Below, piece by piece: positions 13,329 through 45,491 of a DNA stretch of 64,000 nt. Each line of letters opens with the position of its first letter. The first letter of the stretch is position 1. Made by a program: the position numbers and the translations under genes. The notes below the pieces were generated by a model. That model made no database searches, had not been told where the DNA came from, and worked only from the letters and a program-made list of their open reading frames with translations. Source of the DNA: Phyllosticta citribraziliensis (Eukaryota); assembly GCF_038025025.1 (NCBI RefSeq), contig NW_027117341.1, positions 186,001 through 250,000 on the forward strand. The letters run 5' to 3'.

Positions 13329-14518
13329 TCATGCCTCTCTTCTTCGGACAAAAATAAACAAGGCCTCGTCCTTGCCAGCGAAGCTCGGCAGAGGCACCTG
13401 CGCAACGCGCTCGAAGTCCTTCTTCTCCCGCGCCATCCACTCGGCAATCGTCTCAGTCTGAAACCCAGTATACCCGTTGTGATTCTGCGTCCCCGCCACG
13501 ACAATGTAGTCGCCCTCATACGCTCTCAGCACCTTGCCCGTGAAATCGGCGCCGACCTGCGGATACACCAGCAGCAGAATCTCATCCCTCGCGCCGCCAT
13601 TCTGCTTCAAGAACTGTATGCCATCGGCGTACACCGTGTCGCCAATCCACATGGAGCGCCACTCGCTATGCAGATTGTCGACGGCGGTGACGCGCAGCCC
13701 GGCGCGGCGCAGCAGCAGCGCCCAGTACCCGTTGCCGGAGCCTATCTCGAGGACGGCGCGGCCGGGCCAGCCCTTGGGCTTGGGCTGCGGCGGAGCGTGC
13801 AGCGCCAGCTGCTGCAGCAGCGCCAGCGCGTCCCACGTCGGCACCACGCAGCCGAAGTGGTGGTAGAAGACGGGCAGCACGTGGTGCGAGATCTTGGTCG
13901 CGGCGGTGCTGGGGACCGGCCCGCTCCACTCCAGGTTGTGGCACGACCAGGCCCAGTAGTCGTAGTAGGGGTTGGGCAGCGGCTGTTTGCGCTTGTTGGG
14001 GAGGGTCAGCGTGACGGGGGTGCGCGGGGATGCGGCCGCGAGGTAGAGGTGGGATTGGAGGTGTGCGGCGACGGCGGCGCGGAGGCTGTCTTTTTTGGCG
14101 TTGGAGGCGAGGGCGCGGAGGGCGGAGGCGGTGGAGGTCGAGGGGGAGAAGATGGTCGTGTACGCTGTTATGTCTGCGTCTGGCGGCGGAGGCATCTGGT
14201 CCGGTCTTGTTCAGCAGCGCTCTTCCTGATAGAACTTCGAGGTCTGTCTACCTGCTTCCCCTCTTCGTCGACGTACCAGCCGTGTAGCCCATGCTTGCCT
14301 CCAAAGCCAATGGCGTGTTGGACCTGGTCCAGCGTCACTTCGGCGGTGGCGCGGTAGACATATTTGTCCGAAGGTGGGAGTTTGAAGGCCTTGATGATGG
14401 AGCTCCGGAGGTCATTGCCCTGCGGAAGGGCGTCGGCGGTCCATGACGAGAGGAAGGCCTCGGGGTCGAATGGAGCGGGAGAGCCGACCGTGTACGGCTG
14501 CTTTGGCGGAGATGGCAT
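13329..14518 (-). CDS. Fungal protein with a C-terminal class I SAM-dependent methyltransferase-like fold; 2 exons
   Basis: ORF 14168-14518 splices (EGKQ|gtagac...cag|MPPPPDAD) into ORF 13329-14195; motif I VLEIGSGNGYW followed by VTAVDN. Confidence 0.75.
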
Positions 14519-14892
14519 TTGGTGTAGGTAAGGTAGTTTTGGGCACGGAAGAATCTTGGATGACGTCGAGCTGCGGCACAGCTAGCGGTGTCGCGGCGGT
14601 AAACGCGTGGGATGAAAGTCGTTGCCGTGTCTTCAACACCACACAATAATTGGCCGTGGCCTCTCCGAACCACCACCGCGCTCTCATAGGTACCATCTTC
14701 CCTGCGGCCCAATTGCTGACGATCGCTTGATCTCTTTTCGGCATTCGATTGTTCAGTCGTCAATGCATTTGGTCACCCTCCAACAGCCCGTTCCGAACAT
14801 GTCGCGTTAAAGTGAACCGAAAATCAACGCCATCCCCGTTGTCCGACCTCATCTCGCGTATCAAAGCCAACTCTTGAAGAAACACCATCACC

Positions 14893-17660
14893 ATGCTTTT
14901 GAAAAAGCCAATTCGGCCGTCAAGGCCCTGTGTGCCCCACCTCCCAAAGACATGTGGCCGGCGATTTTTGAGGTCGTCGCCAGCAAATTTCGGCGACAAA
15001 TCACCGCGCGACTGGATGAAGCAGATTGCCGAAGAAAACAAGAGACGCTTCAAAGAAGCAAGATGGACAAAAGAAGGGCGCGATGAGGTGATCAACGCAC
15101 CGAGACGCCCGCTGGAGCCTCTCAATCATGAATCTCGGCTAGACACGCCTAAACAACCTTCCGAAGGAGCGGACAAGCTCTCCCTGCACGAAATGACGTT
15201 GGACGAATTGGTCGAAGTGTCGGCGTTGATTCAGAAGCGGATTGAGCGCCTGTCACTGCCTTCCAGCGGTGAATCCACGAGAGAAGAGATCAAAAGATTT
15301 ACGAAAGAGCGCTTTGAGGGACGCGACGACGAATTAAGAGGGTTGCAAGAGATGCGCAAAGAGAACATGGAACGGAGCCCAGAAAGAAGCCGACCATGGA
15401 CCTTCCGCAACAATGATTTCAACCAACGAGAACTGGACCAGTTCAAAGTAGCTGAGAAAAGGGTCGAGGAGATGCTTGCCCGAGCAAACCTCCCGTCACC
15501 GGCGACACGCCCATTTTTTAAGTCTGAGTTTGGCCCCCGTAAAGGACCTGGCCACGATGAGCTTGCATCCCGACTGTCTGGAACACGGACTCACTCACAA
15601 CAAGAGGTTCCAAACGCGACGAATACTGAGTCCGTTCCTCCCCACGCTCTGAAGACGGATGATCAGCATTCGCAACCTTTGGCATCTTCGAGTGGATCCA
15701 CCGAGAGCAAATTGTCTTCTCCAGATACATCGGTACAAGAGCAACCTTTATCGATGTGCAGAGATCAGCATCTGCCTGAGGACACAGAATTGGGATCTCA
15801 ACGCTCCAAATTGGCCAGAGAACGTACCGAAAAAGCAACTGAGTGGCTTAAAGATATGCTTCGTAAAGCAGGCAAGCTTGATGAAGCACCGCCGGGCAGC
15901 CAGCAGTGGTCCATCCAACAGGAATTCGAACCACCGCAAAAAATCGAGCCGCTGGTTTTTTCACTCGCAGAAAAAGCATGGGTCAAGTCTGAAAATGCGA
16001 CGAGCCTCGATTCCAACCAACGCAAGTTCAAATTTGGAGATGTTCTGCCAGTTGTGCAATGGAATTTGCGCATGTTTGGACCCAGCCAGTATATTCCAGC
16101 ACGCTCCACTGCCGCCATGGATGTATTGGAAGAAATCTTTGGGTGGAAACCAACCTCCATGGCCGTTAAATTGCATGAGGTCAACCCACAGACGTTACAA
16201 AGCATCATGAACCATCCCTGGGTCCAGCGTAACTTCTTGGTGGGCTTTGACGACAAATCTAACATTTTCAATGGTAAATTTCCTGCTGAAGTCGGGCTCG
16301 ATGATTTGCCATCTCTTCTTTTGGTGTCTGCGGATTTAATCACAGATAATTGGATAAGCAGACGTATTGGCCAATCTCATCGTGTTTTAAGCGTCGACCT
16401 CCCTATCCAAGGCCAAAACGAGCAGCAAGACCGGAGAGATCTCTTGAGACTCTGCGCCGCGAGACTGGAACGGGTTGTGCTGGGGAACCGTTGGACAGCT
16501 TTCGATGAAGATCGAGAAAACAACCGCAAGACAAAGATGGAAAAAGAAATCGACGACTTCATGAAAACAGGACACAATACGGAAGACAACGTAGTCTCTA
16601 CAGTCATGGCAAGAGATCTGACCTTTCGCCATTTGGACGGTAGTCGCTCGCGACAGTATAGACACAAGTACAAATGGTGGAACAATGGTGCCATGAGAAC
16701 TCGCGAAGCAAGAGTGGTCGATTTCTGGAGTTCAGCAACGAGCGCTGCATTCATCAACAATATGGAAATCGACAAGCTGACCCGGGGAGGAGGCCAATTC
16801 CAATACGGGATAAACTGCAAGAAAAACCTGGGTCACGTCTCACAAGCTGGACCAACCATGGACATGTCCCCTCCATTGCTCCTCTCAGAATACGGTCTGC
16901 AATTTCAGGCCCGTTCATGGCGCGAAGTCGTCGACAATGATATGCTGGGATGGCCGAGAAATGTAGCTCGAGTGCAGAGGAGCAAGTACTGGCCTTACGG
17001 ACCGGGATCGAGATTGCCGGCTTTCCACCGGCAAGAACAATCGCTGTCAGACGTCCCAAGGCCACCTGTGCTTCCAAATATGCCAACAAAGGATGTGTCC
17101 CAAGAGGCTACCGATGCAGTGGAGAAAGAATTGCCTATCACCAATACAGAGCCGACAGACGACGCGAGCGCCTCGACACCACCTTCCATCAGCTACCAGG
17201 AGGCTACCGAGATAATGGAGAAAGGGTTGCCAATCCCCCGCACAGAACCGAAAGTCAGAACAGAGCCGAAAGTCAGCAAAGAGCCAAAAGCCGACGCGAG
17301 CGCCACTACACCGCCTGCATTCAATAACTTCACGTGCAGCCCAGGCTTCAACTACGACTTGACCGAGCACAGCGAAGTCATGATGTGGGCGAGCGACGAC
17401 TACGGAATCGCTCGGAATATCAAGGTACATTTCACACGTTTGCCACCGTCACAACTCGTCGTTCTTGCCGATCGTTCTGCTAATGCTTGCACTGTCAGAT
17501 CGTCGAGAAAGGGCCAGGCTGGTATGGTGGAAAGAGACGCAAGCCGAAGAAACCGTCACCGCAAGAGGATACTGTTGCCGAAGTGAAGACGGATTTGGCT
17601 GGTTCGACGACTGAAGACCCTGAAGCGGGCCGGGATTTAACGGCTACTGGGTCAGTATAG
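14893..17660 (+). CDS. Degenerate EEP (TDP2-like) fold protein, paralogue A; long charged N-terminal extension; intron 17425-17498
   Basis: Ordered EEP blocks VVQWNL, KLHEV, HPWVQRNF, VLSVDLP, LRLCAARLE, MARDLT, RVVDF, WASDDYGI. Intron gtacat...gctaat...cag gives a final exon IVEKGPG...GSV* ending at 17660. Confidence 0.7.
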
Positions 17661-18466
17661 GACGGTGTGCATGAAAGCATCTCACGCGCCACTGCGCCGG
17701 CTTGTCATTGTCTTATCATTCCATGACCTCATGTCCGTCTGGAACGACCTTTACGAAGAGTTGAACCAACGTCGCAATGTGGCCTGCAAATCTTAGCAGC
17801 AGGAAGCATTTATCGTCTTGCTGACGCGGTAATGGGAGAGGCTCTGCGGGGTCTCCATAGCCTTTCCCGGACCACATCGTCGCCTCTGTAATATACTACC
17901 AAAGCTTCATGCGCTTTAGCGAGTGGAGTGTCGCTGATACCTCAAACTGCTTCTCCGTTTGCTGGTCGAATTGTGCCGTTTTCTGGTCATCTTTGCGGTC
18001 TGCTTTCGCTCGCCAGCTCGTTGCGTTTAGGCAGAGAGATATGACCCTTTTCTTTTGTCTTTTCGTCCTTTTGTGCCGTGTCGTCCCTCGACGCCGCGGA
18101 CACATCGGCGCTGTCATACTTGACCTGACGGCAATGTGTGGCTCGGTCAGTGCGACTCTTCGTACTCGATGACTCCAAAATTCAGGCGCTTGTCACACGT
18201 TGCACGGTCGCAAAATCAGGGATTGCACAGCATTACCGTGTTGGCTAAGGCAAGGCTGGCCCCACTCACAGTCTCGTGTAATTGTTCGCGACGGGTGCAG
18301 GTATTTCTCCCACCTCATGTCAGCCAGAAATTTTCCTCTGGCAACCACAGAGCCCCTTGGAGACAGCGGGAAAAGATCAGAGGCAATTCGACCTCCAGCG
18401 ATAAGGCTTTGGGTTACAATGTTCGAGTCCCACGTCCCACTCAAAACTCACCCGTTTCCTCGAATC

Positions 18467-20593
18467 ATGAGCCGAAACCGATTAACAACTCTGAGTTCTC
18501 AAACTGATCATCTCTCCAGGGAATACGATTCACTAGCTCCTGGACCATACGAATACGCACGTTTGAAAGAACCGGACAGACAAATCCGCCTTTTCTACCT
18601 GGAGAAATACCACAAAAACAGACATCAGAATCCGCCAAACAGTGCTTCTGTACAGGACAACCTCCAGGAAGAATCTCAAATTTCCGGCCATCTGGAGCAC
18701 ATCTCCATCGACGACCACCCGGAATATGTCGCCTTGTCGTACACTTGGGGAAGTCCGAAGACTCCTTTTCGAATCCGCGTGGATGCCTCCTACCTGAGCA
18801 TAACGGCCAATCTGTATGCCGTACTTGGAGTACTTTCAAAAATTCCGCAACTGCAAGGAGGCCCTCTGTGGATTGACGCGATCTGCATCAATCAGAGGAA
18901 CGAGGACGAAAAGAACTTTCAGGTGCCCCTCATGGGCAGGATTTATAGCGAAGCAAGTGAGGTGTTTGCTTGGATAGGAGAAGAGGCGGACGGGAGCTCT
19001 GGCGTGCTTGATGGCTTGGTTGCTACTGGGGAGTACTGGCTTGGTATACACGTACCTTTTGCGAAAACCCGTCTTCGGAGAAGAGCCGAGGATTTGTTCT
19101 TTCTCTCACGCAACAGAGGGTTTGATTACAGTCCGGGTAATCGTTTACTCGACGCGCTCAAACAGATACTCGATCCTACATGGACACCCAGTACACAAAC
19201 CCAAAGGCTCTTCAAAAGGGCTTGGTGGCGCCGTGTATGGGTTATCCAGGAGGTCACTCTCGCCAAATATGTGTCAATACTTTGCGGCACTCGCCTCTTT
19301 TCGTGGGAGAAAGTGATGGGAGCGATTAGTTATTTCTCCCACGTACAGCAGATGGCATGGAAGAAGGGACCGTTCTCTGGTATTAAATCCTTGTATGGGC
19401 CTGCTGAACACTTTGAGATATTCCGGGTCAGATTCCAGCGGAGCGTGCCGGACATCATGTGTCGTTCATTTGGGGAAGAGCTCGCCATCAAAGGGATATC
19501 CGACGAGTCCACCCGGAAAGCCTTCCCAGAATTATACGAAACAGGCCTTACTCTCTGGGAAGCACTCTTATGCCTCATGAGACTAGACCATGACGCGTTC
19601 GAGGCGTCTGATGAGAAAGATCGGGTATACGCATTCCTTGCCTTCTTCAGGCCAAGCAGTCGAGACCGAATCCATGTCGACTACTCGAAGAACACAAGAT
19701 TTTCTGATATTCTGAACAGCCTCACACGCAACTTGTTTCAGGAACACGGTCCACGCATTCTCGCATACCGCCAACCTAATTTGGATGAAGCCGAAGACTT
19801 GCCTTCGTGGTACATCGATTGGACTAGAGTGGAGCAAGGTCTGGCTTTGTTCGATCCTGCTGGGCTACTATATACCTGTGCATCGGGAAATGAGAAGTGG
19901 TGTTCTGAAAAGTGTCACATGGACAACGGTCTCCAGTTGCCACTTGAAGGAATCAAGGTATCCACAGTCGATCTGATAGCGAATCTTGAAATCAACCCTT
20001 TGCTAGGAACCAGTCCTCCAATGGGAGACAACGCTTCAACGGAGACCAGCCCCTGGGAGCTCGAGGATCCAATTCAAGACAGAGAACAAGTCGAGGAATT
20101 CACATCCTGGATCCGACTGATGGAAAAGCTCCTGTCAAAATCACACGAAGACTCCCCAGCGCGTGCCGCGAGCAATTTGTCGTCGAAGCAGAATTTATGG
20201 CTCGTTCCCATTGCAGGGGATCAGGATGGCCGGTACCCCTTGGTCTCGAACAGCAGTCCTGGGTGCACGATAGAAGCCTTCCAGACCGTGACCGGCGAAA
20301 AGAAAACGGATGGAGCATCCAAGGAGGGGATTTGGGAATACTGGAGGCGCTTGAAACTCAACGGCAATAAAGGCTTTGTGACTTCTGACGGCAAGGCAGG
20401 CCTGGGACACAGGACCGTGCAAGAGGATGATTTGATCGTCATCTTCAAGGGCTGCAAGTTCCCCTTCCTCATCAGACTTCGCTGCGAAGAGCGGAAAGAG
20501 TATGAGTTGGTTGGCGCGTGCTACGTCGATGGAATCATGTACGGAGAAGCGATGGAAAGCGATCCGACATTTGAAGAGATGTTCCTGGTCTGA
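18467..20593 (+). CDS. HET domain (heterokaryon incompatibility, HET-6-like) protein
   Basis: QIRLFYL, YVALSYTWG, LWIDAICINQ...EKNFQVPLMGRIYSEA, WWRRVWVIQE, DEKDRVYAFL, LPSWYIDW, YELVGACYVDGIMYGE. Start taken at ATG 18467; upstream in-frame starts exist. Confidence 0.93.
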   Translation: MSRNRLTTLSSQTDHLSREYDSLAPGPYEYARLKEPDRQIRLFYLEKYHKNRHQNPPNSASVQDNLQEESQISGHLEHISIDDHPEYVALSYTWGSPKTPFRIRVDASYLSITANLYAVLGVLSKIPQLQGGPLWIDAICINQRNEDEKNFQVPLMGRIYSEASEVFAWIGEEADGSSGVLDGLVATGEYWLGIHVPFAKTRLRRRAEDLFFLSRNRGFDYSPGNRLLDALKQILDPTWTPSTQTQRLFKRAWWRRVWVIQEVTLAKYVSILCGTRLFSWEKVMGAISYFSHVQQMAWKKGPFSGIKSLYGPAEHFEIFRVRFQRSVPDIMCRSFGEELAIKGISDESTRKAFPELYETGLTLWEALLCLMRLDHDAFEASDEKDRVYAFLAFFRPSSRDRIHVDYSKNTRFSDILNSLTRNLFQEHGPRILAYRQPNLDEAEDLPSWYIDWTRVEQGLALFDPAGLLYTCASGNEKWCSEKCHMDNGLQLPLEGIKVSTVDLIANLEINPLLGTSPPMGDNASTETSPWELEDPIQDREQVEEFTSWIRLMEKLLSKSHEDSPARAASNLSSKQNLWLVPIAGDQDGRYPLVSNSSPGCTIEAFQTVTGEKKTDGASKEGIWEYWRRLKLNGNKGFVTSDGKAGLGHRTVQEDDLIVIFKGCKFPFLIRLRCEERKEYELVGACYVDGIMYGEAMESDPTFEEMFLV

Positions 20594-20638
20594 AGGAGCA
20601 TTCATTTGCTTCAGCAGATGACTGATGGGGAGCACTCA

Positions 20639-20728
20639 CGCGTGCTACAGGACGGAATCAGGGAGGGCGACGCGATTAAATACAACCCAATCTTTCACGA
20701 GATTTTCCTGGTCTGAGGAAGCAGTCAT
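20639..20728 (+). repeat. Degenerate direct duplicate of the last ~25 codons and stop of the HET-6-like gene
   Basis: 20639-20728 (cgcgtgctacag gacggaatc...gagattttcctggtctgaggaagcagtcat) aligns with 20515-20605 (cgcgtgctacgtcgatggaatc...gagatgttcctggtctgaaggagcattcat). Confidence 0.8.
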
Positions 20729-21216
20729 ATACTGTGACGTCTACCTGAGAGAGCGTTCCAACGCCATATCCGAAGACTAACAGGGAGCATTCGAGCGTCC
20801 ATAAGTGTAGTGATCAGGAGGTTGTGTCCAAGACTTTTGCTGAAAAGTCTTAGGGGCCATCTACAGCGGCAAGACGGCGAGACAAGTGTTCCCAATCACC
20901 CTTTCCCTCCCAGGAGTTGCATTACGCGTTTACATCGAAGCTGACAACCGTCCCGGAAACCAGAATGCCCGCGAAAGTCCTGCAGAGCCACGCGCAGCAT
21001 CCAGCGAAAAGAAAGTGACTGACGATTCAACGAAGCCAATAACCTTCGCGGACTTTGAGTTAAATGGGAGTCGATACGCGCATCCCCTATTCGAAGCGGG
21101 CAGCTTCCAGAAAGGAAGTTGGTCGTGGACATCATTTAGTCAAGCGCCGCGTCCATTCTCAACGTTGGACAACTTGCATTGTCACCTTCCCGTTTTTTTC
21201 TTGGATCAGATCCATC

Positions 21217-22811
21217 ATGTTGATGCCGAAGCGACTTGGCAGCCTAGCGCGCTGCTCTCTCGGCATCGGGAGAAGGATGTACAGCCAGCAGATATTGGCC
21301 AAGCTCTGGGACTCCATGAACGAAGCCATGGACATGAAGAAGCCATCCTCCAGGAAAAACCTTTCAAGCGACCCAGTACCGCCCAAAGAGCGAATGAGGA
21401 TCCAACCACTGGTTTTTTCAAACACAAAATCCGACTGGGTTGCGGCAGAGGACAATGCTCAACAGTCCTGCCTAGAGACTGGAGCCATCCTGCCAGTAGT
21501 CTCGTGGAACCTACTATTTTTTGGCTTTGGTGGATACGTCGCAGCGCGCTCCTTAGCAGCGATGGATCATTTAAGAAATATTTTTGGAGAGCGACCGCGC
21601 CCGATGGCCTTGATGCTACGGGTCGATCTCGAAGATTTAAGGACCATCTTAGAGCACGAGTGGGTTCGACGCAATTTCGCCGTTGGCTTTGATACTACTC
21701 CGTTTACGCAGCCAAGCCTGGGTGTCTTTCGTGGTCCAAAAGATTCCGTCATGATGGTTTCCAAAGAACTACGCACTCAGCATTGGCTACTCGTCAAAGG
21801 CGTCTTGAGCGTTGACCTCCCGACAGGTGGCCACTACGGTCCTGAGAAAAGTGGCAAAGTTCTGAGGCTCGGTTTTGTACGTTTACGGCACTTTCGAAAG
21901 TTCAGTGAGCGGGATTTTCGCATCGAAAATAGGCTTCGAAAATTGCTAGATCCGGAGTTTTTTCAAAAGGAGCTAAATGAGGCCAAGGAGTCCATCAAAC
22001 CCGTGGTCCAAAAAAGACTGTTGAAGGAAATAAAAGAATATATGGTAAAAGAGTTCCGACCTGGTGACGAGGTGGTTGCTGCGGTGTTGGGAGCAGACAT
22101 CGCTACAGGTGATCACGGCATCCCGAGGACCGCCTACAGGTGGAGGAAAGTTGGGGCTGTCAGCCGGCCTACAGACCTGGAAAATGTCAGGACTGATCGA
22201 GTTGTCGACTTCTTCCTCTCAAAATCGGTTGAACGGGTCAGGGTCGAAGAAATATACGAGGAGATGGCGAAAAACGGGATACGCAGCAAAGTTCCATTGC
22301 AGGAAGTGATGAAGTATGGTATCAACCGCAAAGTCCCACTGGGACCTTTTCCAAAGGAGAAAAAACCCACTGTCGCATCGTATTCCGATATGCTGTCGTC
22401 CTATACGGCAAACACAAACCGCAGCTGGAAGGACCACTCCTATTTCGGCTGGCAAAGAAATCGTATTTACAGTGACGGTATGTCCGATCTCCAGCACGAA
22501 AGGGACATCCTTGGACCTCGACTTTGGGCTCGCCGAAGCCTCAATTCCAGGGCGGAAGAAAAGTCATCCAAGACGTCTGGAGACTCGTTCACAATACCGT
22601 CCTTCGCTCAAATTTTCACAAACGATCCGAGATTCAACTACGACTTGCACAAAGGAGAGGTTTTGATGTGGGTCAGCGATGACTACGGAGACATCACTGG
22701 TATCAAGGTATGGCAGTTGAGAGATCGTTCGACTCATTTTGTTGACACATTGAAAATCAGGTCGTGGGAGGTGAACTGAAGCAAAATGCGGAACCCAACG
22801 GCCCTTCATGA
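21217..22811 (+). CDS. Degenerate EEP (TDP2-like) fold protein, paralogue B; intron 22708-22760
   Basis: VVSWNL, AARSLAAMDHLRNIFG, HEWVRRNFAVGFD, VLSVDLP, RVVDFF, FNYDL...MWVSDDYG match paralogue A. Intron falls after the same IK codons. Start 21217 (MLMPKR) is preferred; ATG 21064 is possible. Confidence 0.7.
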
Positions 22812-23334
22812 ACAATGAATCCTGTACGACTCAAAGAGAAGCTGATTCATTTCCTACCATGCAGCATCATAGTACTGTTCATACTTCCATGAGTTTTAAT
22901 TCTCCGCGGATTTCCTTTGTTTCGTTTGAATTCCCAAACCGTCACCATGAAGTTTGGCAACGATAAAAGCAGGAAATCGCCAGCAATTTAAGGAGGACTG
23001 AAAGATCATCATCACAACCAACTGAAGGAGAAATGTTTGGTTTGGACAGGAGCGAGGGGTTCAAGGACTGGAAGATGTCCCCGATTCTTAAATGGTTCTT
23101 CTTCAGACCGCCGTGAAGAAGGTCTTCGGATTGGTCAATGCAGAAAAGCTTTTGATCAAGTGGAAGGTCAAGCCATGGTTCCCAATTTCCAGGAGAATCA
23201 AGCACTATACGGTCACCAGTCTTCGGAGGCAGGCAGCAGTCGAAAGTCATGATATTCGTGTGCTTGAAGGGGTATCTAATCGCTTGAGTGTAGCCTCCCC
23301 ACGAGCATCATCTATGTCGCTCCGTCTAGGCGAC

Positions 23335-23816
23335 CTACTGGGTCGTGACAACGCCGTCTTCCTCGACGGTGATGTGGTCGTTGGTGGACAGGATGGAGAC
23401 ATTGTCCGCGGGCAGCTCGGCACTGTCGAAGCAGTCAGCCTGGAGTTCATTGCACATCCCATGAACATGTTCAGTCCCAATTCATAGTCGACGTCCGTAT
23501 ACGAAGCCATCGTCTGTGTGATGTCCGGACATTCCGATCCTGCCTTGGATCTGGGGAATGTAGATAAGGTTGGAGCGGGGTCGACGTACGTGAAGCCCTT
23601 GATGAGCTTGAACTCGGTGAGGATCTTTCCGCCTTGGTCCGTGACGGTCTTCTTTGCCCTGTATCGTGTCAGTTACTTGAGCTGTGTCTTAACAGGACTC
23701 GACCTACTTCTCAAGCTCCTCGTGGCTGGCGCCTTCCTTCAGGGTGACCTGGACGATATCAGCAACGGACCCCGCATCAGGCAACCCTCGAGGTATCATA
23801 CGTTGACGTTGGGCAT
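23335..23816 (-). CDS. Peptidase inhibitor I9 family (proteinase B inhibitor PBI2/POIA1-like), 70 aa, 4 exons
   Basis: Exons 23816-23802, 23748-23708, 23658-23590 and 23422-23335, all with GT/AG borders, translate to MPNVNVTLKEGASHEELEKAKKTVTDQGGKILTEFKLIKGFTAELPADNVSILSTNDHITVEEDGVVTTQ*. GG.I...F.LIKGF and VEEDGVVTTQ are typical of I9. Confidence 0.85.
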
Positions 23817-24342
23817 TCTGGCAACAAACGGGTTGGACTTGGTAAGAGGTGTTGGTAGAGGAATCACTGGAGAGGGATGAAGAGAGGAACCTGGGACAGG
23901 TGAGCCGGCAAGCTTAAGTAGCAGGTGATGAGCCAGCCCCTCCATCCCAAAAGCCGTAGCAAGGCGGCGCTTGATGACGTGCGTTGGCAGCAAAGCCCAC
24001 CATGATAACGTGGCGGTCAGCTTCAACTGGCACCGCAGAATCTGGGAAAATCGCCCGGCAAAACCGCGACGCTGACGCCATCATCACCAATCTGACTCAC
24101 TGCACCGAGCAGCTCAAAAGGGCCTCTAGCATCGAGGGAGACAACCGGGGGAGTGCTGAGAGGACAAAGTGGTTGCCGCAGCGAGGGCGGAGCAGTCGGC
24201 GGGCCCGACTCGCCGCGCTTATCGATAAAGCGGACACGAGTCAGTTTAGCGCGTCGTGGAAATCCGACCCTTGCTCTCACATCCAAAATTTCAACTCTGC
24301 TGAGCTCGACACTGCTTTGCGCCAGCCCGCCGCGCAACCACC

Positions 24343-27300
24343 ATGTCCGAGCAGACAAACAAGCCGCATCGCGCGGCCAAGGAGAAGAAGAAGGCCACTG
24401 GCGGTATGCATCGCTTTTGACGGTGGTGGATCCAGCGCTTACAAAATTTCTAGGACCAAACCCCAAGGCCTTTGCGTACGCTGCTCCCGGACGCCTCCAG
24501 AGGACGGCAGCGCGCTCTCACGATGTACGTCTGGCGCATACTGGTGGAGATTGAGGGCCATACTGACACTTCTCAGGTCAAGGAAAAGCGTCTCCACGTC
24601 CCTCTGGTGGACCGCTTGCCAGAGGAAGCGCCACCTCTTGTCGTCGCCGTCGTTGGACCTCCTGGAGTATGGACATCACAGCTCGAGTTCTGCCCATATG
24701 CTTACGATATTAGGTCGGCAAAACCACACTCATCAAGTCCCTCATCCGCCGCTACACCAAGCAAACCATTTCGCAACCGGCCGGTCCTCTCACCGTCGTC
24801 ACCTCCAAGCGCCGCCGTCTTACCTTTATCGAGACTCCCGCCGACTCGCTCGCCGCCATGATTGACATCGCCAAGGTCGTCGACATTGTTCTGCTCATGA
24901 TTGACGGCAACTACGGCTTCGAGATGGAGACAATGGAGTTTTTGAACGTGCTGAGCTCAACGGGAATGCCGGGCAACGTCTTTGGCATCCTGACACATTT
25001 GGATCTGTTCAAGAAGCAAAGCACGCTCAAAATCCAAAAGAAGAGGTTGAAGCACAGGTTCTGGAGCGAGCTGTACCAGGGCGCCAAACTGTTCTATCTT
25101 TCCGGGGTCATGAACGGCCGATACCCTGATCGCGAGGTCCTGAACTTGTCGAGATTCTTGTCTGTCATGAAAAACCCTCGTCCGCTCGTCTGGCGCAATT
25201 CGCACCCCTACTGCATCGCCGATCGCTTCTTGGACATTACGCCGCCGACTGCGATGGAGGAGAACCCCAAGTGCGACAGGACTGTCGCGCTCTACGGATA
25301 CCTAAGAGGGACAAATTTTCCAGCACAAGGCGCACAAGTACACGTGCCAGGTGTTGGCGATTTGAAAGTCTCAATGATTGAGCAGCTGCCGGACCCGTGC
25401 CCGACTCCCCACCAGGACCAACAAATGGCGAAAGTATCCGGCAAGACGCATCGGCGAAGACTGGGAGAAAAGCAAAAGCTTCTTTTTGCACCCATGTCAG
25501 ACGTCGGTGGCGTGTTGGTCGACAAGGACGCCGTCTACATCGACGTGAAAAACAGAACTTTTGACCCAGACGACAATATCGAGGACAAGGGTCTGGGAGA
25601 GCAGATGGTCATCGGCCTGCAAGGCGAGAGAAAACTGCTCGGCGAAGCAGAAAAGGGGCTGAAGCTGTTTAGCAATGGCGAGGTTGTTGACAGAGCTGCC
25701 CAAGACGACACAAACGACACGGGAAGGAAAACCCAGCGTCAGGCACGATTGGCCAGCAAGGTGGAAGAAGTGGACGACGACGATGAAGATCTGGGCAGCG
25801 ATGATGAAGAGGAGGAAGCACCAGAAGAGGACGACGAGGATGATAATGGCTACGTCGAGGGCGAAGGCATATCAGAGGCACGGCTAGGTCGCATGTTCAA
25901 AAAGGACGACGAAAAAACAGCCAACGGCACCGACGACATTGCTTTTGCCGACAGCGACTCGGATCTGGGTTCCATGTCATCAGTGGACGACCAGGAGCTC
26001 GAGGACGGCGAAGACTTTGATTCCGAGGACGAAGACGAAGACGGCGAAGTGAGATGGAAAGACAACCTCGCTGACCATGCAAGAAAATTGCACGGCCGCA
26101 AGCGACCATACCGGACCGCAGAACTCGCCCGCTTAATTTACAATGACGACCTGGCTCCATCCGAAGTCTTGCGAACATGGCGAGGCGAGGACAATGAGGA
26201 GCACGAGGATGAGGATGAGGAGGAGGACGACGAGCTTTTCAAAAAGGTTGCGAATGAAGCAGAGGAAGAGCAAGAAGACCGTCCGATTCCTCAGTACGAC
26301 TACGAGGCTCTCGAGCAAAAGTGGAAGGACGAAGAGAACCTCGAAGCGCTTCGTCGCCGATTCGCATCGTCAAGCCTCCTCAAGGGCCAAGATGGCGAAG
26401 CAGGCTCTGATGAAGAATTTGACGGCTTTGATGGGGAGGACGAGGATGAAGACGACGAGGGCGACGGCGAGTTTGAGGATCTCGAAACCGGGGAGAAGCA
26501 CGGCGGAGATGAGGAAGAGGAAGATGCAGACGAAGAAGGCAAGCTGGAAGCAGAGCGAGAGAAGAACGCTCGGAAAAAGGAAGAGCTCAGGCTTCGGTTC
26601 GAAGAAGAAGACCGCGATGGCTTTGGCCAGAACAAGGGAGGGGACAAGGCAGAGGAGCAAGAGTTTGGCGAGGACGACTGGTACGATGCGCAAAAGGCGG
26701 CCATCCAGAAGCAGCTGGACATCAACCGCGCCGAGTTTGACCAACTGGACGACCAGTCTCGCGTCCGGGTCGAAGGCTACAAGGCTGGCACCTATGCACG
26801 CATCGTGCTCGAGGAGGTCCCTTACGAGTTTTCGGCAAACTTCAACCCTCGCTTTCCCATCATTGTCGGCGGCCTCACACCTACGGAACAGCGCTTTGGC
26901 TTTGTGCAAGTGCGTATCAAGCGTCACCGGTGGCACAAGAAGATTCTCAAGACCAACGACCCCCTCATCTTCTCCCTCGGCTGGCGGAGATTCCAGTCGA
27001 CACCAGTGTACAGCATTTCGGACTCCCGAACGCGAAACCGCATGCTCAAGTATACTCCTGAGCACATGCATTGCTTCGGCACCTTCTGGGGACCGCTGAT
27101 TGCACCCAACACTGGCTTCTGCTGCGTCCAGTCATTTTCCAACAAGAACCCTGGTTTCCGCATTTCAGCCACCGGAGTGGTTTTGAACGTTGACGAGAGC
27201 GTGGAGATTGTCAAGAAGCTCAAGCTCACGGGTCACCCGTACAAGATTTTCAAGAACACGGCCTTCATCAAGGACATGTTCAGCACGACTCTGGAGATTG

Positions 27301-28001
27301 CCAAGTTTGAGGGAGCCAGCATCCGCACAGTGTCTGGAGTCCGGGGTCAGATCAAAAAGGCGCTCAGCAAGCCCGAGGGCCACTTCCGCGCCACATTCGA
27401 AGACAAGATCCTCATGAGCGACATTGTGTTTTTGCGAGCGTGGTACCCAATCAAGCCGCACCGATTCTACAATCCGGTGACCAACCTGCTCGACATGGCT
27501 GGACAAGCAGAGAAGGGCGAGGACGGCGAGTGGAAGGGCATGCGGCTGACGGGAGAGGTGCGGCGCGATCAGGGGATTCCGACACCGCTGGACAAGAACT
27601 CGGCGTACCGGCCAGTGGATCGCCAAGAGCGGCATTTCAACCCGCTGCGAGTGCCCAAGAAGCTGGCGGCGGAGCTGCCGTTCAGCTCGCAGCCGGTGCG
27701 GATGGGCAAGCAGAAGAAGGAAACATACCTCCAGAAGAGGGCGGTGGTGGCGGGCAAGGAGGAGAAGACGGCGCGCGACCTGATGCAGAAGGTCATGACG
27801 CTGCGCAACGAAAAGGTGGCCAAGCGACATGCGGCGCAGGAGAAGCGGCGGGAAGGATACCGCAAGAAGGTGGCGGAGAACGAAGAGAAGCGGGCGGAGC
27901 GGGAGAAGCGCGAAAAGGCCGACTATTGGGCGCGCGAGGGCAAGAAGCGCAAGCCTGAGGATGGAGGCGGAGGAAGGGGTGGGAAAAGGGGCAGGCATTG
28001 A
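24343..28001 (+). CDS. BMS1: Ribosome biogenesis GTPase Bms1
   Basis: Spliced N-terminus [10 protein letters not shown]...NPKAFA...[65 protein letters not shown]. Confidence 0.97.
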
Positions 28002-37521: not shown

Positions 37522-37794
37522 TAAACGTTTGGCGATTGCTGCTGTTGGTACAGTAGCAACCGTGCCAAATTATATATGCAAGAAAAGTCCAGCGTCTTCT
37601 ACTCCCTGCTTTGTGATCGCATCTCCATGCACTTCAGCAAATCGCCTACGGGTTTCTAGGTACAACGACGCAGGTTTGCGCAAAACATGCGCGACTACTA
37701 ATACAATCCTGCAGCCGCAGGTGGTTTTCCTGGCCCCCTTCTAGCCTGGATTCGATCAAAGTGCTTTTGAATCCTTCCACCGGATTGTTTGAAA

Positions 37795-39210
37795 ATGGAA
37801 GCAGACTCTCGTGAAAGCGAACATGGCGAAGCTCGATCCAGTTCCCCGAAAGCCCCCCTGACCAGCTCCAAGTCTTCTGTTCCCGTCAGAGAGCAGCCTG
37901 CGTTGCTCAGACTTCCGCTGGAATTGCGCGAAATGATCTATCAGCACCTGCTTCTTGTTGGGGTCGTCCGCATTCGCCCTGTTATGTGGCAACCGGCCAA
38001 TCCGAACATGTTGCGCATGGCCACTCCGTATCCACCAAAGTGCAGTCGCTCAACATTCCAATCTAAGGACACCCATCAAGAAGGCACTTATGGACTTGAT
38101 TTTTCTGGACTACTCAATCCGCCGTCCCTCGCTATCATGGAGACTTCTAAATGTCTTTACAGTGAGACCGCGTCGTACTTTTACGCGAAGAATGCCTTCT
38201 TTTTTGATTGGATCGAACAAGATGGGAGTCGGGACGAACTGGACTTTTACATCAGAGCAGCTCTTGCCTTTCTTCAAGATCGACCGAGCTGCGTTCTCGG
38301 GTGGATGAAGCACATAAAGATCGGGTTTGGCCTGGAAAACATTAGTCGCAGACGTCCAAGGTTACGCACCTTTTTTCAGAACGCTGCACTTCTTGAAGAA
38401 GTGGAGCGTTTTTATGCCATTCTTCGGAACCAACTCAAGCTTAAAAAGCTTTCAATCATTGTCAGAGGTTGGCCACTTGACGTTCGACCTGGAAGATTGG
38501 GCTTCGAATACCGCCCCGAGTCCACTGACTTCAACCAAGGGCGGCGGGATGTTGACCCATGGACATTGAAACATGTTCGTATTGGACTGAAGCATTTACT
38601 GTCGCTCTGCGATATTCCGAGAGTTTCAGTGGAAATCCACGCGAAGCAACCCTCCAATCGCGGCACGCCGCAAACAGAATCCTTCGACCTTGGTCGTCTT
38701 GTGGCGTTCGCTGCCCTCGTCCGGTCACGTCTTCTTAATGGTGGCGAAGCTTTGGGGACTGCCAGCATCTCAGTTCACAAACGGCACCTCGCTGAAGTTG
38801 CTTTTCCGGTCGGCATGCCAAACGATTCTGCATTCCGAAGAGATCGCGAGCGTTACTGGGTCGTACGATGCGATGACGAACAGTCGGGCAAGTCCCTGTT
38901 GGCCCCCGCAAAACGCCTACAGCGTCCGTTGGTTCGGGATCCGAATCGAAGCGAGCAGCTTCGTCAACCCTTCTACAATTCGAATGGAGAGCTTCATAAT
39001 CACTCAATTTATGGAAAAGAGCACAGACATCTATTTCATCGACACTCAGCCTTGAAATATATCTCATTCTCGAATTTCCTCCGTCCCTCCAGCGACAGCC
39101 CCTCTGATCACGACTACAATGACAGCGACGACGATGAAAACGACAGCCTCAAAGACGTCGATATTAGCGCAGAAGACGTTGAGCACCTCCCACCAGAAGC
39201 TTTCATGTAG
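37795..39210 (+). CDS. Hypothetical protein with N-terminal F-box-like motif
   Basis: PALLRLPLELREMIYQHLL, later LAIMETSKCLYSETASYFYAKNAFFF, a pattern common in fungal F-box-like proteins; about 470-codon intronless ORF. Confidence 0.7.
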   Translation: MEADSRESEHGEARSSSPKAPLTSSKSSVPVREQPALLRLPLELREMIYQHLLLVGVVRIRPVMWQPANPNMLRMATPYPPKCSRSTFQSKDTHQEGTYGLDFSGLLNPPSLAIMETSKCLYSETASYFYAKNAFFFDWIEQDGSRDELDFYIRAALAFLQDRPSCVLGWMKHIKIGFGLENISRRRPRLRTFFQNAALLEEVERFYAILRNQLKLKKLSIIVRGWPLDVRPGRLGFEYRPESTDFNQGRRDVDPWTLKHVRIGLKHLLSLCDIPRVSVEIHAKQPSNRGTPQTESFDLGRLVAFAALVRSRLLNGGEALGTASISVHKRHLAEVAFPVGMPNDSAFRRDRERYWVVRCDDEQSGKSLLAPAKRLQRPLVRDPNRSEQLRQPFYNSNGELHNHSIYGKEHRHLFHRHSALKYISFSNFLRPSSDSPSDHDYNDSDDDENDSLKDVDISAEDVEHLPPEAFM

Positions 39211-43201: not shown

Positions 43202-45076
43202 CTACTCCAACACGAAGCTTCGCCTCTCGCGTTCGAGTTTTTCAAACCACGCGTCGAACCTAATAAGACCGGTGCCGATCCGATGGAAAACACCGTCTTC
43301 TTCGGACTCTTCAATGGCTATGATGGCGACATAGAAGCATTGCCTGCGAGGATCCGGATCGGAAAACTGGGAATTGAAAATCTCAAGAGGAGAAAAGACT
43401 TGCTTCAACTCCCAGGCCTCACACAAGCAAGCCGACAACGCGAAAAATGTGAGACTGCCGCGGCGCAGTGATGGTCCTGAGATGGCCTCGGCGAATCCCG
43501 CTCCAATACAATCACGGCCGTGGAAAATGTGAAGCCCGATCGATCCGTGCCTGTCCACCTTGTGCGTTACGTCTAGTCTTGAAATCCACGAATGGACTAG
43601 AATGCGACCTGGTGATTTTGCAAGGCTTTTTTGCTGCTCCGAAAACTCTCGGAAGTAAAGGGGTTCCACGTCGGGATTTTGGCTGGGATTGTTTGACCTG
43701 ATGCCACGGGAGTATTTCCAAAAGTCCGCGTAAGAGGGAAACTTGTTCCCGAATTCAGTGGTCGTCATATCGCGAGATATATTTTCGGTCGGAGACACTG
43801 ATATGTAGCCATTTACGTAGGCATGAATTGCCATACGCATCAAGGCATCATTTTTCTTACTTCCTTGACCAAACATTCCAAAGTTGGGCCTCGGATAATC
43901 CAAAGAAACCTTCCCTTTGCTGTCAATCTTATCAACAAAAGCCCAAAAAGGTATGACCAGATTCCGGAGATCTCTGGGGAAGAGTATTTGACCTTCCATT
44001 GAGGCCCAGCACCACGTTGGAAAAATGTGACCGTTGGTACTGGGCCGACGTCTCCCTTGGCCGTCTTTTACCCACCAATGCATAGCGCTGTCAAAATCAT
44101 TCCTGGGCATGCCAAATAAATGGTTCTTGTCGAACAGATGATTGCAAATGCCGGAAAACGCATTGACAATGTCGTGCCGGTAGCTCAACATTCTTTCGGT
44201 ATAATTTTCGACAGCTTCGCAGTATTGGACCGCGCCGTGAAACATCGTTGTGTGTTGAGAAATGCGCGGTTCTTGAAGTCCTCGTGACAGAAATGCTTCC
44301 CCCTCATGCTCGAATATGACGCCCTCTCTTAGAAAAAACACCACGTTCCGAGACAGTACCGCTTCTTGGTACGTCCAGCCGCGTTTCAGCCATGCTGATC
44401 TCGTCCAGGAATCGTTTCCAGAAGCCTTCGGATCTATGGGTCTCGAAATACCATGCAATCCGTATCTTGCGTCGTTGCCCTCGTACGCTATGAGAGTGAC
44501 GAGTGCGTGATTGTAGATGCGACCGATTCCGTCGAAATGGGCCTGTATGTCTTCTTTAGGGCCATCCTGCACGATGCAAAGCCTGTCTACCCAGAGGTAT
44601 CGTTGGCCGAGACTTTGACAGGCAGTCATGGCGTCCTGAATTGTTGCCGGGACTCCTAGATTATTTGGGCCCATTGGTTCCTCTGGATTCTCAGGGCTGT
44701 CTAGTGCTCCGTCTTCTTGCAGCCGGGTAATGTTGTCTACTCTGGCTTGAAATTCTTTGACTTTTCCCCAAGTATAACTCAAGCAGACATAGTCGAATGG
44801 CTGTCGCGGCACTCTGACGATTTTCCTCTGGACCACGTCGATAAGACGGAGCCATCTAGGCACGGGATGCAGCTTCGGCACAAAAGTGGCATTGTTCAAC
44901 TTTGATTTGAGCCGTTCCCAGTTGATTGTCGATAGATCACGTTCGAGATATTCTCTTGCCTTCCTTTCATACGCCGAGAGCGAAAGTTCGATGAAAGGCT
45001 TTGCGTCGAACCATTCATCTTCTGAATCGCTCGAGTCAGTGGTCCAGTCTTTCCATTCATCCGATGAGTCGCTCAT
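43202..45076 (-). CDS. HET domain protein (TOL-like subtype)
   Basis: LRLIDV, YVCLSYTWG, PATIQDAMTAC..LG.RYLWVDRLCIVQD, IYNHALVTLIA, WLKRGWTYQEAVLSR, FPTWCWASM. Confidence 0.92.
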   Translation of the reverse strand: MSDSSDEWKDWTTDSSDSEDEWFDAKPFIELSLSAYERKAREYLERDLSTINWERLKSKLNNATFVPKLHPVPRWLRLIDVVQRKIVRVPRQPFDYVCLSYTWGKVKEFQARVDNITRLQEDGALDSPENPEEPMGPNNLGVPATIQDAMTACQSLGQRYLWVDRLCIVQDGPKEDIQAHFDGIGRIYNHALVTLIAYEGNDARYGLHGISRPIDPKASGNDSWTRSAWLKRGWTYQEAVLSRNVVFFLREGVIFEHEGEAFLSRGLQEPRISQHTTMFHGAVQYCEAVENYTERMLSYRHDIVNAFSGICNHLFDKNHLFGMPRNDFDSAMHWWVKDGQGRRRPSTNGHIFPTWCWASMEGQILFPRDLRNLVIPFWAFVDKIDSKGKVSLDYPRPNFGMFGQGSKKNDALMRMAIHAYVNGYISVSPTENISRDMTTTEFGNKFPSYADFWKYSRGIRSNNPSQNPDVEPLYFREFSEQQKSLAKSPGRILVHSWISRLDVTHKVDRHGSIGLHIFHGRDCIGAGFAEAISGPSLRRGSLTFFALSACLCEAWELKQVFSPLEIFNSQFSDPDPRRQCFYVAIIAIEESEEDGVFHRIGTGLIRFDAWFEKLERERRSFVLE

Positions 45077-45491
45077 GGTGTGAGTTTCGGGAGGCTGATT
45101 GGAAAACAGTTTAGTGGAAAGAGTTTGTCGATTGAAGTGGGTCCTTGATAGTCCTTGGCAGTTCTTGCCAGCGCATCTAGGACGAAACGGAATTTAACAG
45201 TGGTGCTGATAAATGGCCAGCTCGAAGACTGGGAAAGGGAGCAAAGCGCACTGTGAGCACATGGTGCGCATCACAGCCGGCTCAGCGCAACACGACCAAG
45301 CGACTTTTTCCGAGAGAGCTTTCGCAAGCGACTTTATGACTGTTCCGTCGGCCTCCTGTTATCGATAGGGTCACATTCATGGCCATCATGCAGCTGGCGT
45401 GCCGATCTTTCAGTGTAGTAATCGGCAACTCCTTGGTATCCTTACTCCATCTAGGGTTCCTCCGTCTTGGGTTGCTTCCGCATGACCATCT

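Follow-up and report, generated by a model that had tools for sequence, protein, structure and literature searches.

Het loci are known from Neurospora, Podospora, Cryphonectria, Botrytis and Aspergillus, and to our knowledge no het-type locus has previously been defined in a Dothideomycete. In Neurospora crassa, het-6/un-24 pairs a HET gene with a closely linked, polymorphic partner, and het-c/pin-c, mentioned in PMC10890737, is of the same kind. According to the same account, het-B of Podospora anserina consists of Bh, which encodes a HET protein with a lectin fold, and the adjoining Bp, which encodes a PII-like protein, and its haplotypes are highly divergent (PMC10890737). Many HET-domain genes of Aspergillus oryzae that have divergent alleles are reported to give no incompatibility on testing (PMC11138114), which counts against the reading proposed below.

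The window analysed here is a 64,000-nt stretch of Phyllosticta citribraziliensis DNA, in which the block 14893-22811 holds three co-oriented genes: A (pseudo-EEP), B (HET-6-like) and C (pseudo-EEP). We tentatively read B and C as a linked, two-gene, het-B-like locus of self/non-self recognition in Phyllosticta, with confidence a little short of even. B would be a HET-6-like cell-death effector, and C a catalytically inactive TDP2-like EEP protein retained as a fast-diversifying recognition partner. A is an older paralogue of C and lies outside the conserved polymorphic core; its possible roles are those of an additional partner or of the ancestor that gave rise to C by copying. A literature search for a pairing of HET with EEP or TDP2 found none.

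Three long reading frames run on the + strand of the window (14878-17586, 18173-20593 and 21064-22779). Gene A (14893..17660, + strand, 897 aa) comprises exons 14893-17424 and 17499-17660, a model based on the reading frame and its translation, an intron-bridging contig of run X3, the computed spliced product and the orthologues P0004, P0005, P0006 and P0019. The GT..AG intron lies at 17425-17498; the RNA-type X3 contig skips the matching 74 nt (17423-17496), showing that A is transcribed and spliced. Its N-terminal ~340 residues are of low complexity, and the TDP2-like pseudo-EEP domain begins at about residue 350 (15940..17424, + strand, from alignment columns and hhalign of the Phyllosticta subfamily). 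Gene B (18419..20593, + strand, 724 aa) is a single exon whose start was set by the orthologue P0169, the alignment of the two beginning at P0169 residue 19. Gene C (21217..22811, + strand, 513 aa) comprises exons 21217-22707 and 22761-22811, the latter closing with the stop codon at 22811. Splicing of its GT..AG intron (22708-22760) yields the C-terminus annotated in P0007, a P. citribraziliensis protein with which C is 100% identical over 451 aligned residues. The intron after IK that the first-pass annotation had described as common to A and C was thus recovered in both, from the X3 contig for A and from the P0007 C-terminus for C. Imperfections are visible in the gene models of P0007, P0009 and P0011.

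The composition of the block agrees with the earlier description of three genes with lower GC and weaker codon bias than their neighbours. GC content is 0.49-0.52 over 15-23 kb against 0.55-0.63 in the flanks, and GC3 of A, B and C is 0.55-0.57 against 0.85 and 0.70 in the nearest flanking genes. Codon bias is also weak in other fast-evolving genes of the window (HET2 and DUF7730).

The identification of the middle gene as HET-6-like stands. B matches the Pfam HET family PF06985 (E 5.3e-27, 95.4 bits, cut-off 22.5) at 18725..19252 (+ strand; residues 185-360 of P0002), and its homologues, of which 458 were retrieved, bear names such as 'het-6'; identity to proteins named HET-6-like is only about 29%. 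In precomputed annotation, nearly all homologues listed carry PF26639 together with PF06985, and B aligns with these to its last residue, while PF26639 was absent from the families listed in a Pfam scan of B itself. The AF2 model of B (pLDDT 77.9, pTM 0.79) predicts a C-terminus, putatively of the HET-6 type, made of a helical module and a small barrel. Its best structural matches were TIR domains and nucleoside 2-deoxyribosyltransferases, at Z scores of 4.0-4.8 that lie inside the tool's stated noise range. A second HET gene is present in the same 64-kb window, and since HET genes are this common, the odds of a chance adjacency are higher.

A and C are divergent paralogues, as had been proposed from their motifs, all of which were found in the translations. 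They are 30% identical (122/407, E 1e-34), with a second C-terminal segment matching at 25/51 residues (E 3e-9). Neither gave a match in a direct Pfam scan, PF03372 included. Comparison with hhalign aligned nine Phyllosticta members with 29 canonical fungal EEP proteins at 99.9% over 296 columns (E 3.7e-37), and the family profile searched against PDB sequences retrieved TDP2 only (10/10 matches, best E 1.3e-6). For the AF2 model of C (pLDDT 73.8, pTM 0.77), all proteins among the Foldseek matches listed were EEP proteins. Structure comparison (VIA) gave Z scores of 13-15.8 over model residues 87-497; the best 19 matches were all TDP2, at Z 14.7-15.8 with about 200 residues aligned and an rmsd of 2.7-3.9. 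The predicted fold of C is thus a TDP2-like EEP alpha/beta sandwich. In the tree, A and C had already duplicated before P. capitalensis diverged from the citrus-associated species, and each copy has persisted.

The earlier view that these EEP proteins are dead agrees with the profile match, the modelled fold of C and the catalytic columns of the alignment. Four catalytic residues conserved in most canonical proteins are found in none of the nine Phyllosticta members: the His of THLES (34/37 in canonical proteins), the Asn of GDxN (32/37), the Asp of RLD (36/37) and the His of SDH (32/37), the last replaced by Asp in 9/9. The catalytic Glu is kept in five of the nine, C not among them, and the Asn in six. 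A keeps WN, HEV and the Asp of GDxN but lacks the His residues of THLES and SDH (here SDD) and the Asn of GDxN, while C, having also lost the Glu of QEV, is the most degenerate copy. Judged by these columns, the Phyllosticta subfamily is one of predicted pseudo-enzymes. Among the nine members 47 columns are invariant, and the reading frames are intact in all species, which together argue for a retained, non-catalytic function.

The nearest sequence relatives are the canonical fungal EEP family P0012-P0069, members of which are named 'tyrosyl-DNA phosphodiesterase 2' (JGI) or, in Xylaria, 'Endonuclease/exonuclease/phosphatase'. PF03372 was detected at E<=0.01 in 5/5 canonical relatives scanned; the curated cut-off was exceeded by three of them, reached by P0037 and missed by P0024. 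Like the Phyllosticta members, this family has a P..[FY]S...W block ahead of the domain and an N-terminus that is basic, but it keeps all catalytic motifs. Homologue searches found no member of the degenerate subfamily outside Phyllosticta. None of the 36 metagenome loci that encode catalytically intact relatives (275,545 nt in all, with 15 loci reaching 8 kb or more) holds a HET reading frame, so a general EEP-HET linkage across EEP relatives is not supported.

The partly preserved site of A bears on a different role, in which the dead TDP2-like proteins would be sensors or decoys of a pathogen ligand (for example, 5'-protein-linked mycovirus nucleic acid) or of an effector directed against the active enzyme, B would be the death effector that they release, and diversity would come from an arms race. 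TDP2 is the enzyme that unlinks VPg from picornavirus RNA, a pseudo-enzyme with its fold intact and some of the metal site still present (WN, HEV and Asp in A) would fit a decoy or a ligand sensor, and A, B and C all diverge rapidly between species. We nevertheless consider xenorecognition very unlikely: its ligand is purely hypothetical, an arms race should produce sweeps, not a set of very old alleles inside a single species, and A, which has the better-preserved site, is the non-polymorphic copy in P. capitalensis.

Gene order outside the window was inferred from consecutive GenBank accessions and common contigs rather than read from DNA. In two P. citriasiana strains, the accessions of C, HET and A end in 314/315/316 and in 048/049/050, respectively. 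HET and C adjoin in two strains of P. capitalensis (084/085 and 928/929), with the A-type gene 42-53 accessions away from them. A and HET are consecutive in P. citrichinensis (383/384); A and C are two accessions apart in four accession sets of P. citricarpa, leaving one gene between them, and three apart in P. paracitricarpa, leaving two. The HET protein P0171 and the C-type protein P0161 come from contigs of the same size (11,668 nt), and a contig of run X5 connects the 3' ends of A and B in another organism. Overall, A adjoins B in five species, that of the window included, and HET adjoins C in every Phyllosticta species in which both proteins were found. The HET model of P. citrichinensis contains a stretch of ~90 residues that cannot be aligned, and the model is split in another strain.

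The first-pass annotation had proposed a three-gene cassette and had taken homologues without a HET neighbour as the sign of a chance insertion between old duplicates. C does not behave in this way, as HET and C adjoin in two strains each of P. citriasiana and P. capitalensis. The cassette itself did not hold: A is remote from the pair and non-polymorphic in most P. capitalensis strains, so the conserved unit is HET plus C. Synteny within one genus is expected anyway, which counts against the weight of this linkage. An alternative is a fast-evolving, lineage-specific island without any recognition function, in which a decaying EEP tandem has a chance HET neighbour and strain differences reflect cryptic lineages, gene conversion or annotation. 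The restriction of the subfamily to Phyllosticta, the weak codon bias shared with HET2 and DUF7730, the frequency of HET genes, the hint of decay in the P. citrichinensis HET model and the three imperfect gene models all fit such an island. We regard it as improbable, however, because the reading frames are intact across species, A is transcribed and spliced, and both products of a duplication older than the P. capitalensis split survive. The strains themselves add a further argument against it, since A-type proteins are 99.9-100% identical in strains whose C proteins are 47-60% identical.

This contrast comes from P. capitalensis, for which 4-5 annotated strains are visible through protein clusters. 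The C proteins of the strains tagged IWZ01, HDK90 and IWZ00 are 47.5-59% identical to one another, and that of BKA78 is 93% identical to that of IWZ00. The HET proteins of IWZ01 and IWZ00 are 79% identical, with the lowest values (52-66%) at residues 500-650. The A-type protein has the same sequence in four accessions and is 99.9% identical in IWZ01; that of HDK77 is only 91.6% identical. The 90%-identity clusters of P0008 and P0010 have one member each, which indicates strain-specific C types, one per strain, rather than paralogues present in every strain. The divergent, co-segregating haplotypes anticipated from the window were accordingly found in this species (C 47-60%, HET 79%, A-type 99.9-100%), a pattern that a locus of self/non-self recognition would be expected to show. 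HET and C are both known for only two haplotypes, and the near-identical background rests on one gene at least 42 accessions from HET-C, which leaves room for a divergent block of greater extent, for introgression or for cryptic lineages as the cause of this pattern. Trans-species polymorphism, which old het loci typically show, was not seen in a tree of 16 rows, seven of them C-type, in which the C alleles of P. capitalensis form one clade (99/98 support).

The same alleles might be explained by B alone, acting as the recognition and death determinant with an allelic or unlinked partner, while C hitchhikes in a non-recombining divergent island, its constraint relaxed after the loss of catalysis. 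The HET alleles are themselves only 79% identical, het loci are described as islands of divergence (PMC11138114), most catalytic residues are gone from C, and HET was never found beside the canonical relatives (0/36 loci). We think this unlikely. In the same strain pairs C differs by 41-52% and B by 21%, which hitchhiking does not predict; the C alleles are all full-length reading frames with the same conserved blocks, arguing for selection on function; and HET-C adjacency recurs in each Phyllosticta species with both proteins.

In the species of the window, pieces from two other samples differ by 0-1 letters; the three samples looked uniform in these pieces. The B-C spacer includes a 137-nt stretch particular to the window (20639..20775, + strand); contigs of runs X2 and X3 join 20638 to 20776 and have 16 other letters there. 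The stretch holds a stop-terminated relic of a HET gene 3' end at 20642-20716, in which 11 of 24 residues match the last 24 of B (by eye), both ending in a stop, and a 19-nt repeat with two mismatches is also visible. A divergent HET 3' relic immediately after B, in a stretch that varies among samples, suggests past turnover at the locus.

Under the two-gene reading, B and C would be co-adapted within one haplotype and give no reaction. When hyphae of strains with unlike haplotypes fuse, a foreign C would meet an unadapted B, or the reverse, and the HET domain would kill the cell formed by fusion. C would be read by the most variable part of B, a helical module that precedes the C-terminal barrel, by analogy with Podospora, where BH reads the PII-like BP through its variable C-terminal domain. 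The allorecognition function, the direct contact between B and C and the direction of triggering are all inferred. As candidate roles for the dead EEP proteins, the first-pass annotation had named guardee, decoy or inhibitor of the HET protein. A further step, possible but doubtful, is that a dead TDP2-like nuclease was recruited as the hypervariable partner of a HET (TIR-like) effector, with A marking the origin of the system in the guarding of an enzyme of DNA repair or RNA unlinking. Such a locus would, as far as we know, be the first of the het type to be defined among Dothideomycetes, and its class of partner would be new.

The locus offers a compact pair, a HET-6-like effector and a structured pseudo-enzyme, whose natural alleles fall to 47% identity between strains of a harmless endophyte that are otherwise almost the same. 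Should the pair prove incompatible, dead TDP2-like EEP proteins would be a new class of partner in fungal allorecognition, and the pair would offer a defined interface at which partner sensing by HET effectors could be studied. Whatever the het outcome, the fate of an EEP/TDP2-like enzyme after the loss of catalysis bears on pseudo-enzyme evolution.

Compared with TDP2, the C model has the same fold, and the motif order WN / QEV / HLES / GDxN / SDH is common to both. The nine Phyllosticta members differ in lacking the catalytic His, Asn and Asp positions and in carrying large helical and disordered insertions, with an N-terminal extension of ~340 aa in A. Like het-6/un-24 and het-c/pin-c, the locus combines a HET gene with a linked polymorphic partner, and here too the interaction within a haplotype block would be non-allelic; B homologues are named 'het-6'; the partners there are a ribonucleotide reductase and a membrane glycine-rich protein, whereas here the partner would be a pseudo-enzyme without a housekeeping role. 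With respect to het-B (PMC10890737), the partner in Phyllosticta is a dead TDP2-like EEP instead of a PII-like protein, the C-terminus of B is putatively of the HET-6 type (helical module and small barrel) instead of a lectin fold, and a second, paralogous partner-like gene (A) flanks HET in some species. The Phyllosticta locus also differs in showing no trans-species polymorphism in the tree. The two have in common that a HET death gene adjoins a partner from a family otherwise belonging to ordinary cell biochemistry, that both genes are highly divergent between strains, and that the variable part of the HET protein lies C-terminal to the HET domain.

From 14.9 to 22.8 kb, the + strand of the window carries three long reading frames. 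Gene A (exons 14893-17424 and 17499-17660; 897 aa) contains a predicted GT..AG intron, the single-exon gene B (18419-20593; 724 aa) has its start taken from the orthologue P0169, and gene C (exons 21217-22707 and 22761-22811; 513 aa) carries an intron at the same site as A, after ..IK. A single contig of X3, a run from another sample of the same species, spans 17010-17422 and 17497-17940 unbroken, skipping the 74 nt of the intron predicted in A, so this gene is transcribed and spliced. X3 bears no RNA label on record and was judged RNA-like from its spliced contigs; a depth of about 20 over the 3' ends of genes B and C is taken as presence only. Splicing of the intron of C yields the C-terminus annotated in P0007, the public P. 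citribraziliensis protein, with which C is identical at every one of 451 aligned residues. A and C are paralogues (122/407 residues identical, E 1e-34). GC content is 0.49-0.52 across the block versus 0.55-0.63 in its surroundings, and GC3 is 0.55-0.57 versus 0.85 and 0.70 in the nearest flanking genes. The first-pass annotation had described a three-gene block with paralogous outer genes, a shared intron and weaker GC and codon bias; frames, alignment, GC and GC3 bear this out in all points, and the intron that it guessed for A is the one removed in the spliced contig.

The genes flanking the block are ordinary core genes: a methyltransferase-like ORF on the - strand (13329-14210) with a very high GC3 of 0.85, and a BMS1/Tsr1-type ribosome-biogenesis GTPase on the + strand (24714-28001; RIBIOP_C, E 4.6e-102). 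Just downstream of C, a - strand gene at about 23100-23850 has three short introns, read from CT..AC-bounded skips of 167, 49 and 53 nt, and by far the top contig depth in X3 (bin depth 7356). Named close homologues of A, B and C all come from Phyllosticta, which together with the match of C to P0007 places the window in P. citribraziliensis or a very close relative. The N-termini of A (14893-14995; free of acidic residues over the first 34 positions, eight Lys/Arg in the first 30) and C (21217-21310; free of acidic residues over the first 31 positions, six Lys/Arg in the first 30) are presequence-like and could direct the proteins to an organelle, and a Lys/Arg-rich run in the second exon of A looks like a nuclear localization signal.

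Searched singly against Pfam and PDB sequences, A and C retrieved nothing meaningful. A word-seeded search with C returned 11 proteins, C included, comprising Phyllosticta proteins and three JGI proteins named 'tyrosyl-DNA phosphodiesterase 2' (E 8e-16 to 3e-13). With an 11-sequence profile, HMMER retrieved 383 representatives at E<=0.001 (57 at E<=1e-30), the top matches being named Phyllosticta proteins, which a score step sets apart from a broad fungal family that retains the canonical EEP motifs. PF03372 matched at E<=0.01 all five canonical relatives scanned, three of them above the curated cut-off, and none of the four Phyllosticta members scanned. Profile-profile comparison of nine Phyllosticta with 29 canonical sequences gave a probability of 99.9% (E 3.7e-37, 296 columns), and all ten matches of a joint profile to PDB sequences were TDP2 (best E 1.3e-6). 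The AlphaFold2 model of C (pLDDT 73.8, pTM 0.77) matched only EEP proteins in Foldseek; in a second comparison, by VIA, the first 19 rows were all TDP2 (Z 14.7-15.8, about 200 residues aligned, rmsd 2.7-3.9). The TDP2-like EEP assignment made from the sequence at first pass is therefore supported by profiles for both putative members, and by the predicted fold for C only.

Catalytic columns were read from a 46-sequence alignment of nine Phyllosticta members and 37 canonical relatives. The Asn of WN is present in 6/9 Phyllosticta and 34/37 canonical sequences, the Glu of QEV in 5/9 (it is absent from C of the window) and 35/37, and the Asp of GDxN in 6/9 and 32/37. None of the nine Phyllosticta members retains the His of THLES (34/37 in canonical relatives), the Asn of GDxN (32/37), the Asp of RLDKF (36/37) or the His of SDH (32/37), the last being Asp in 9/9, and the TWGYQ segment is deleted. 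Judged by sequence, the Phyllosticta members are pseudo-enzymes whose activity is predicted to be lost, in line with the earlier view that the flanking EEP proteins are dead. All of them have long ORFs, with 47 invariant columns, which argues for retention of the fold for some role besides catalysis. In the public models of the C orthologues P0007, P0009 and P0011, conserved blocks are dropped or scrambled: two segments open in frame in the window are absent from P0007, and the middle of P0009 is unalignable. These faults are probably annotation errors, and identities involving the three proteins are lower bounds.

Gene B matches Pfam HET (E 5.3e-27), and its nearest relatives beyond Phyllosticta, many of them named het-6-like, are about 30% identical. 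Its model is confident (pLDDT 77.9, pTM 0.79), with TIR domains and nucleoside 2-deoxyribosyltransferases as best matches (Z 4.0-4.8, inside the noise range of the tool); these agree in kind with the TIR-like HET domain described in PMC10890737. Expansion of the HET family in P. capitalensis is noted in a comparative-genomics study (PMC6612112). A second HET-domain gene of the window (43202-45193, - strand; Pfam E 6.3e-25) lies in a low-GC, low-GC3 block and, at 28% identity to B over 114 residues, was rejected as a near relative; another such block holds a DUF7730 gene (37771-39210, + strand; E 7.1e-8). Fast-evolving genes of this kind seem to be interspersed among the core genes of the window.

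Gene neighbourhoods in other species were inferred from accession order, from contigs of equal size in common and from one contig of X5, a run from a different organism; the three lines agree. GenBank protein accessions follow feature order in a submission. C, HET and A are consecutive in two strains of P. citriasiana (KAK7523314/15/16 and KAK7518048/49/50), A and HET adjoin in P. citrichinensis (KAK8159383/84), and C and A are exactly two accessions apart in four accession sets of P. citricarpa and three apart in P. paracitricarpa. HET and C adjoin in P. capitalensis (KAK8207084/85 and KAK8242928/29), where the A-type gene shares a contig with C at a distance of 42-53 accessions. Within each assembly the proteins of the locus sit on equal-size contigs, as with the 11,668 nt shared by the HET protein P0171 and the C-type protein P0161. 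In X5, one 3,910-nt contig links the 3' ends of A and B, and two contigs agree with the window as far as 21289, beyond which they continue with unlike letters; the almost nil cover over 21290-23150 (gene C) carries no evidential weight. Given the distance of A from C in P. capitalensis, the conserved unit, as read from these accession orders, is HET plus C, and A adjoins it only in other species. A HET profile built from the homologues of B detects the two HET genes of the window and no HET gene in the 36 metagenome loci that encode canonical relatives (275,545 nt; 15 loci >=8 kb), themselves located by a scan with a 9-sequence alignment. HET linkage is not general to the EEP enzyme family; the linkage raised at first pass for homologues of both flanking genes is kept in Phyllosticta for C, and does not extend to A in P. 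capitalensis.

No C-type protein was seen in P. citrichinensis among the homologues found; P0019, considered as a candidate, was rejected as the C-terminal half of an A-type gene. In the B orthologue of this species, P0169, about 90 residues (about 305-395) are unalignable and lack the conserved motif block of B, which looks like a frame-shifted segment, and the HET gene model of the other strain (P0170) is short, at 439 aa. The gene may thus be undergoing decay in P. citrichinensis.

The result that carries the finding beyond mere adjacency is polymorphism of C and HET among the five P. capitalensis strain tags visible through protein clusters. The A-type protein is the same in four accessions (100%), with 99.9% identity between IWZ01 and IWZ00 and 91.6% between HDK77 and IWZ00. 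C is only 59% identical between IWZ01 and IWZ00, 54% between IWZ01 and HDK90 and 47.5% between HDK90 and IWZ00, with BKA78 and IWZ00 at 93%. HET is 79% identical between IWZ01 and IWZ00, and the difference is mosaic, some 50-residue segments being at 92-96% and residues 500-650 at 52-66%; if numbering transfers, this stretch of P0172 would correspond to the helical module that precedes the C-terminal barrel in the B model. Two C types each form a 90% cluster with one member, and the C types are therefore strain-specific alleles or idiomorphs and not paralogues present in all strains. A functionless, fast-evolving island is an unlikely account of the block, since the identical A-type background weakens that explanation of the divergence. 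Two very different B-C haplotypes in near-identical backgrounds match the appearance of a het locus, the same pattern being described as 'islands of diversity' at het loci (PMC11138114) and as divergent haplotypes at het-B (PMC10890737).

The divergent haplotypes proposed as a test at first pass appear in P. capitalensis and not in the window's own species, where pieces from X2 and X3, runs of other samples, differ from the window by 0-1 letters; the identical pieces of a further run, X7, are too tiny to be informative. In the B-C spacer, X2 and X3 contigs have 16 other letters in place of 20639-20775 (137 nt) of the window. This stretch holds a relic (20642-20716), in frame with the end of B, of 24 codons resembling the C-terminus of B (11/24 residues identical by eye), followed by a stop as in B. 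A maximum-likelihood tree showed no trans-species polymorphism: it groups the C alleles of P. capitalensis in a single clade (99/98 support).

The best-supported reading, which we hold tentatively, is that B and C form a het-B-like, pseudo-allelic two-gene system. We infer the steps from divergence to function: B would be the death effector, C its diversifying partner, and unlike B/C combinations meeting after hyphal fusion would lead to death. B might instead act by itself with C hitchhiking, an option to which we give little credence, given that the divergence of C is about double that of B and yet C stays intact; that the module senses pathogens seems more improbable still. Complex prediction pairing residues 60-497 of C with residues 480-706 of B, its C-terminal module, run without supplied alignments, scored 0.00 in both runs and weighs neither way on the two-gene reading. 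The EEP-HET recognition module first proposed is supported in part: B plus C is the likely module, with A in an uncertain role. No pairing of heterokaryon incompatibility with TDP2, or of the HET domain with EEP proteins, was found in the part of the open literature searched, with about 1.7 million PubMed Central articles and the subscription journals lying outside it. Compared with described systems, we rate the B-C pair as an established type of locus in which the class of partner is new.
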